Part shown: piece after piece, positions 59,379 through 59,425 of the stretch
Position numbering within the stretch: the first letter of the stretch is position 1
Layout: the number at the start of each line of letters is the position of its first letter
Origin: Escherichia coli
Lineage (GTDB): Bacteria > Pseudomonadota > Gammaproteobacteria > Enterobacterales > Enterobacteriaceae
DNA length: 64,000 bases
Assembly: GCF_041886205.1 (NCBI RefSeq)
Contig: NZ_CP169029.1
Reading direction: 5' to 3' (one strand)
Notes under the pieces: model-generated
The model's database searches: none
What the model was told of the DNA's origin: nothing
What the model saw: only the letters and a program-made list of their open reading frames with translations
Translations under genes and position numbers: made by a program

Positions 59379-59425
59379 CGCCCCCTCACCCTAACCCTCT
59401 CCCCAAGGGGGCGAGGGAACCGTCC
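59379..59425. repeat. GC-rich imperfect palindromic intergenic repeat (family uncertain)
   Basis: CGCCCCCTCACCCTAACCCTCTCCCCAAGGGGGCGAGGGAACCG, where CCCTCTCCCC...GGGGGCGAGGG forms an imperfect hairpin between the convergent hemB and tauD. Confidence 0.5.

Follow-up and report, generated by a model that had tools for sequence, protein, structure and literature searches.

A catalogued BoxC (PIT/TMECO) repeat in the hemB–tauD spacer of Escherichia coli and its resemblance to a probable ppnP terminator

Identity of the hemB–tauD element

The GC-rich element between the convergent genes hemB and tauD has already been catalogued as a copy of the BoxC dispersed repeat, also known as the PIT element (Hoyne et al. 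2000; Hoyne & Maher 2002) and as TMECO, the "triplex motif" (Holder et al. 2015, PMC4666352). A GC-rich hairpin of similar appearance lies downstream of ppnP in the same window (the whole stretch of 64,000 nucleotides analysed), and we hold with high confidence that the hemB–tauD element is a BoxC copy carried as a passenger repeat and that the ppnP hairpin is an unrelated, ordinary terminator. A previous sequence-only reading had described both sites as GC-rich imperfect palindromes adjoining gene 3′ ends, as is indeed the case for hemB (ending at 59329), tauD (59435) and ppnP (40847), and had suggested for the two one small dispersed family distinct from REP. For the hemB–tauD element that family exists: it is boxC, which was among the repeat catalogues proposed for comparison at the time (23 copies in MG1655; profile E = 1.2e-13). 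The discovery value is small, as this exact copy stands in a published table and the proposed second member appears to be a routine terminator.

The window comes from an E. coli chromosome. Of 5426 complete E. coli genomes, 5346 were matched by a 221-nt query taken around the hemB–tauD site, with annotations of hemB (porphobilinogen synthase) and tauD (taurine dioxygenase). In the window, hemB ends at 59329 on the plus strand and tauD at 59435 on the minus strand; the two convergent genes are separated by a 105-nt spacer (59330–59434), and the element is intergenic, lying between the two stop codons. The tauD stop codon itself (59435–59437) is TGA in the window strain, and TAA in MG1655, O157 and the strains with the short spacer allele described below.

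The core of the element, CCCTCGCCCCCTTGGGGAGAGGGTTAGGGTGAGGGG, occupies positions 59382–59417 on the minus strand. It is identical to the orthologous MG1655 copy and, letter for letter, to TMECO no. 5 in Table 1 of PMC4666352 (MG1655 388664–388699, 36 nt, type "A mm"), which sits in the MG1655 tauD–hemB spacer. Read on the minus strand, the element is CCCTCGCCC-CCTTG-GGGAGAGGG-TTA-GGGTGAGGG(G), a C-rich block with two G-rich blocks after it. The C block CCCTCGCCC (59409–59417) carries G at its free position 6, which produces the "mm" mismatch against the A of the first G block; loop 1, CCTTG, spans 59404–59408. The first G block, GGGAGAGGG (59395–59403), is the Watson–Crick partner of the C block, and loop 2, TTA (59392–59394), defines type A. 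The second G block, GGGTGAGGG (59383–59391), is the proposed third strand of a purine-motif triplex in the published model (PMC4666352). The window copy thus shares with the catalogued element all 36 nt of the core, the three blocks, the type A loop TTA and the G/A mismatch, and it also shares the intergenic position, the conserved flanks and the membership of a multi-copy family; we found no element-level difference.

The sequence-only reading had quoted CCCTCTCCCCAAGGGGGCGAGGG, which is present at 59395–59417, inside the interval of 59379–59425 that had been given for it. This quotation covered two of the three 9-nt blocks, and the third, CCCTCACCC at 59383–59391 (plus strand), is the one that defines the family. 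When searched as CCCTCNCCC-N3-6-GGGNGAGGG-N3-GGGNGAGGG, the three-block pattern had a single exact match in the 64 kb, at 59383–59417 (minus strand); 100 shuffles gave none. It is the consensus published for TMECO, whose authors equate TMECO with BoxC, later called PIT by the Maher laboratory (PMC4666352).

The similarity extends beyond the core. An nhmmer profile built from the 23 MG1655 copies matched the window at 59371–59429 on the minus strand (E = 2.6e-14), covering the core and the conserved flanks (..GCggACGGTy / GG/GAAC..). With the orthologous MG1655 copy removed from the profile, the match was 59381–59427, with the E-value of 1.2e-13 given above. The extent of the element agrees with the BoxC unit, quoted as 56 bp, and in annotation 59371–59429 should be labelled BoxC/PIT/TMECO.

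An imperfect inverted repeat, AGGGGGAGTTAACC / GGTGAACGCCCCCT, spans 59347–59386, where unique spacer sequence pairs with the outer end of the BoxC unit. We also considered a decayed type-B partner copy at 59337–59356, where an A run comes after CTCCCCCTTTCTGAGAGG. A 28-nt linker ending in TTAA fits the five inverted A+B pairs of MG1655; alignment against shuffles gave p ~0.05–0.5, and the partner copy is not established.

Copies, flanks and distribution of the BoxC family

BoxC is a genuine multi-copy dispersed family distinct from REP, and the hemB–tauD element is a member of it. We fetched 18 MG1655 loci and re-found 23 of 23 published copies at their published coordinates. With a 61-nt BLAST query, 5425 of 5426 complete E. 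coli genomes gave matches, at a median of 18 places per genome and at 32 at most. In the alignment of the 23 MG1655 copies, conservation continued past the core, with GCnCnnnACGGTC on one side and GAACAG..GCAC on the other, giving a unit of ~55–60 bp.

IMG/VR contigs supplied 123 distinct copies for an assessment of covariation. Position N6 of the C block varied together with N4 of the first G block: T was matched by A in 94 of 95 copies and C by G in 4 of 5, which supports the pairing of the C block with G block 1 as a conserved secondary structure. The variant with G at position 6 of the C block, the type to which the window copy belongs, always had the G/A mismatch and carried T in the second G block in 21 of 23 copies.

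With respect to neighbouring genes, seven of the 18 MG1655 loci were convergent, nine co-directional (one of these inside the pst operon) and two divergent; at 16 of the 18 the element lies downstream of at least one gene. The excess of convergent over divergent loci (7 vs 2; binomial ~0.09, one-sided, calculated by hand) is not significant and is at most a hint of a 3′-end preference. The copy inside the pst operon, at MG1655 3908495–3908530, lies between pstA and pstB; given this position inside pstSCAB-phoU, it must be transcribed as part of a polycistronic mRNA.

Two of the 23 MG1655 copies lie in the annotated cryptic prophage CP4-6 (MG1655 281600–289800), and the yagA-adjacent one has a partial inverted BoxC-like stretch (CCCCAAAGGGGAGAGGGGAC) just upstream. 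The three-block pattern was found in at least 120 IMG/VR viral or prophage contigs, a count that may include host DNA within predicted prophage contigs; their G+C content varied widely (median 0.61), and several carried 2–4 copies. BoxC-like sequence was present in 4 of 50,697 cultured phage records and in 467 plasmid records, including Klebsiella, Sinorhizobium, Rhizobium and Azospirillum, some of the plasmid records being chromosome-sized.

Comparison with other dispersed repeats

REP/BIME (PU) units resemble BoxC in being short, GC-rich, imperfectly palindromic and scattered through intergenic regions, frequently between convergent genes. They differ in sequence and architecture: their consensus is of the GCCGGATG...CATCCGGC type, and they fold into one hairpin and lack a third block. 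REP/BIME elements occur in hundreds of copies, have RAYT/TnpAREP, gyrase and IHF as partners, and play an mRNA-stabilising role; to our knowledge, neither these partners nor such a role has been demonstrated for BoxC. A REP consensus search (GCC[G/T]GATG...C[A/G]TC[A/C]GGC) gave no match at the hemB–tauD or ppnP site, and the only REP-like unit that it found in the 64 kb was at 8422–8454 (GCCTGATG...CATCAGGC).

The RSA repeats of enterobacteria, at ~152 bp, are much longer than BoxC, and we know of no sequence relation between ERIC/RSA and the hemB–tauD element. ERIC (~127 bp) is likewise much longer; ERIC/IRU and RSA are similar to BoxC in being dispersed intergenic repeats treated in the same surveys (PMC2267715). 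Rfam gave 0 matches at the gathering score across the 64-kb window, and at E ≤ 10 the regions around the hemB–tauD and ppnP sites gave chance-level matches only, none of them to a bacterial repeat family.

Alleles of the hemB–tauD spacer

An alignment of representative genomes revealed three E. coli alleles of the hemB–tauD spacer. The long BoxC allele (105–106 nt; 59330–59434 in the window) is found in the window strain, MG1655 and O157, with a few flank substitutions between the window strain and MG1655. The short allele (39 nt), found in ST131 and ETEC4068, has as its sole feature a perfect 10-bp hairpin, AUGCCGGGUU-AUCC-AACCCGGCAU (predicted fold −16.7 kcal/mol, z = −3.9). This hairpin was considered as a terminator and rejected: its T run is too short for the criteria of the scanner, which leaves a plain hairpin. 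The rare third allele, in strain D72, carries 52 additional nt, which resemble a diverged duplicate of the tauD-side flank.

The BoxC copy is a presence/absence polymorphism in E. coli. The full spacer is present in ~3600 of 5424 matching E. coli genomes; the BoxC allele accounts for ~66% and the 39-nt allele for ~34%. The short allele replaces the whole 105-nt spacer and not the BoxC unit alone. The long and short alleles share nothing between the two stop codons, and no insertion signature, such as a target-site duplication, can therefore be read from them. The unique flank at 59330–59381 was considered as a copy from another BoxC locus; this was rejected, as the flank is single-copy, and it occurs in 3602 of 5426 genomes.

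When the hemB 3′ end was scanned in one genome per species, three Escherichia genomes outside E. coli had the short allele: E. whittamii, Escherichia sp. MOD1-EC7003 and a third species-level genome. By parsimony, this distribution makes the BoxC allele probably the derived one, a polarity that is given by three outgroup genomes and that recombination between lineages could have distorted. In Citrobacter, REP-like units (GCCGGATGGCGGCTTCGCC...) occupy the spacer downstream of hemB. The same hemB-downstream junction carries different repeat or hairpin types in different lineages.

Under the explanation that we prefer, the BoxC copy, together with ~50 nt of unique sequence, would have entered some E. 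coli lineages in place of an ancestral 39-nt spacer and its plain 10-bp hairpin, and the structure-prone blocks would be the likely cause of the repeated rearrangement of such spacers. BoxC-bearing loci have been reported to be more variable among E. coli strains than control intergenic regions (PMC4666352). A derived BoxC allele fits the "intergenic change" published for TMECO loci (PMC4666352), and so does a simpler reading, in which part of the reported variability at these loci is the presence or absence of the repeat itself. The allele structure of this spacer is the one mildly new point of this analysis, and the pair of alleles offers a clean means of testing BoxC action in cis.

Structure and possible function of the BoxC copy

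The BoxC core consists of one C-rich block (CCCTCNCCC) and two G-rich blocks (GGGNGAGGG), each of 9 nt, within a ~56-bp intergenic repeat of E. coli and many other bacteria. Where the DNA or RNA is single-stranded, a hairpin can form between the C block and the first G block, and in vitro the second G block can occupy the major groove, giving a purine-motif intrastrand triplex. G-rich single-stranded oligonucleotides of type A mm form a very stable triplex of this kind, as judged by CD and NMR; duplex DNA forms no triplex, and DMS footprinting in vivo gave no sign of one (PMC4666352). For the window copy, the predicted fold of the tauD-sense (minus-strand) RNA, which covers the Watson–Crick part of the structure, is −30.3 kcal/mol (z = −2.98), and the fold of the hemB-sense RNA of the same region does not stand out.

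We infer that the window copy is a passenger with no dedicated cis-regulatory role. A scan of 59250–59550 found no promoter- or terminator-like site, in line with the published lack of terminator activity of PIT elements: as summarised in PMC4666352, which cites Hoyne & Maher 2002, these elements showed neither promoter nor terminator activity and left RNA polymerase unaffected. A search of the literature after 2015 on TMECO, BoxC and intrastrand triplexes retrieved nothing further on function among the papers covered. The reading of the copy as functionless is thus an argument from negative published assays, and protection of mRNA 3′ ends is not among the assays cited.

The alternative that survives best is that the BoxC copy has been co-opted as an RNA 3′-end structure which, in the manner of REP, protects the hemB and/or tauD mRNA from 3′ exonucleases or aids 3′-end formation, taking over from the hairpin of the short allele. 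We regard this as unlikely. In its favour, the BoxC allele probably replaced a spacer whose only feature is the perfect 10-bp hairpin, the tauD-strand RNA folds strongly, the long spacer contains no other terminator-like site, and the downstream position at 16 of 18 MG1655 loci would suit a 3′-end role. Against it, PIT elements scored negative in the published assays for terminator activity and for an effect on RNA polymerase; no U run follows the copy in either orientation; family members show no strand bias relative to transcription; and two of the MG1655 loci lie in divergent promoter regions. The absence of a T run on both strands also distinguishes this copy from intrinsic terminators, and the terminator scan did not call it. 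Slightly less probable still is the related proposal that the BoxC allele has been kept because its hairpin now serves as the 3′-end structure of both convergent mRNAs, or because it alters read-through. If such a role did explain its retention, it would give a BoxC copy its first assigned function in cis.

In principle, the structure that matters could be neither hairpin nor triplex: the G-rich strand, with four G tracts separated by 3-nt loops (GGGGAGAGGGTTAGGGTGAGGGGG), could fold into a G-quadruplex. The canonical motif (four G3+ tracts, loops of 1–7 nt) occurs only twice in the 64 kb, at 59381–59404 (minus strand), within the element, and at 20367–20393 (plus strand). Nevertheless, we consider this reading very improbable: NMR of TMECO oligonucleotides gave 18 sharp imino signals, which the authors read as a triplex and not a quadruplex, and DMS footprinting in vivo revealed no guanine protection (PMC4666352). 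A quadruplex would also leave the conserved C block, and its covariation with G block 1, unexplained.

The ppnP hairpin

Judging from its sequence, the ppnP hairpin is an ordinary single-copy intrinsic (Rho-independent) terminator outside the BoxC family. The ppnP gene is a 94-aa ORF at 40847–41131 on the minus strand, with its stop codon at 40847–40849. The predicted terminator spans 40813–40840 on the same strand (hairpin 40818–40840) and reads GCCTTCCC-CTTGAAC-GGGAGGGC followed by ATTTTT; in the transcript, this is GCCUUCCC-CUUGAAC-GGGAGGGC followed by AUUUUU, starting a few bases past the stop codon. The terminator scan called a stem at 40840–40818 (minus strand) of 8 pairs, 6 of them G-C, with a 7-nt loop and a T run, and the RNA fold is predicted at −15 kcal/mol (z = −2.05). 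The site fits an intrinsic terminator in every one of these respects (8-bp GC-rich stem, 7-nt loop, T run, a few bases past the stop), and the scan agrees with its earlier interpretation as a terminator. The quoted string GCCCTCCCGTTCAAGGGGAAGGCGAGG is also present, at 40818–40844, which is ~6 nt off the 40812–40840 given for it.

It is extremely unlikely that the hemB–tauD element and the ppnP hairpin belong together in one small family of dispersed GC-rich palindromes, and in our judgement, within the sensitivity of these tests, the two-member family as proposed does not exist. The two share the short strings CTCCC, CAAGGG and GGCGAGG, and at each site a hairpin with a pyrimidine-rich arm stands at a gene 3′ end, but the ppnP hairpin lacks the BoxC blocks, does not match the BoxC profile, is present once per genome, has no third block, and is followed by a T run, which BoxC copies do not have. 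Specifically, neither the two-block nor the three-block BoxC pattern matched at 40818–40844, and no GGGNGAGGG block, nor any other 9-nt block, was found within 1 mismatch (40800–40850 for the former, the hairpin for the latter). With all filters off (nhmmer --max), the BoxC profile gave no match at the hairpin at E ≤ 1000. A 47-nt query around the hairpin hit exactly 1 place per genome in 5421 E. coli genomes, compared with the median of 18 and maximum of 32 for BoxC.

The resemblance on which the two-member family was founded is real and lies within chance. The best local alignment between the ppnP hairpin and the BoxC region scored 18 (18 matched bases, two 3-nt gaps). This score was equalled or exceeded by 63 of 6383 39-nt windows of the 64 kb (~1%) and by 1.3% of shuffles. 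The likeness arises because both stems pair a pyrimidine-rich with a purine-rich arm, as is generic for terminators. Generic GC-rich terminator composition, which had been named beforehand as the finding that would undo the proposal, accounts for the ppnP half of it. The loose motif offered for a genome-wide search, CCCTC(T/C)CCC...GGGG(G/A)...GCGAGG, matches neither element when run as a regular expression, since the segments of the motif overlap one another in the actual DNA.

The window contains 4 hairpins in which a GC-rich arm is all pyrimidine or all purine; shuffles contain 1.7 ± 1.5 (maximum 5). Apart from the hemB–tauD and ppnP sites, two hairpins with such arms lie at 45070–45090 and 62859–62880. 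In a Lelliottia, Enterobacter soli and a Citrobacter sp., too, hemB is followed by a single CCCTC/GAGGG-type hairpin. Stems of this type are by themselves unfit for inferring family membership, and 40813–40840 should be labelled as the ppnP terminator.

The DNA beyond this terminator differs between strains. Over 40650–40704 and the ORF at 38424–40712 (minus strand), most E. coli genomes do not align, their alignment to the window beginning only at ~40705 and running rightwards, and only 45 E. coli genomes are at least 99% identical over 40650–40950. Both observations point to the AT-rich DNA and long ORF downstream of ppnP being strain-variable.
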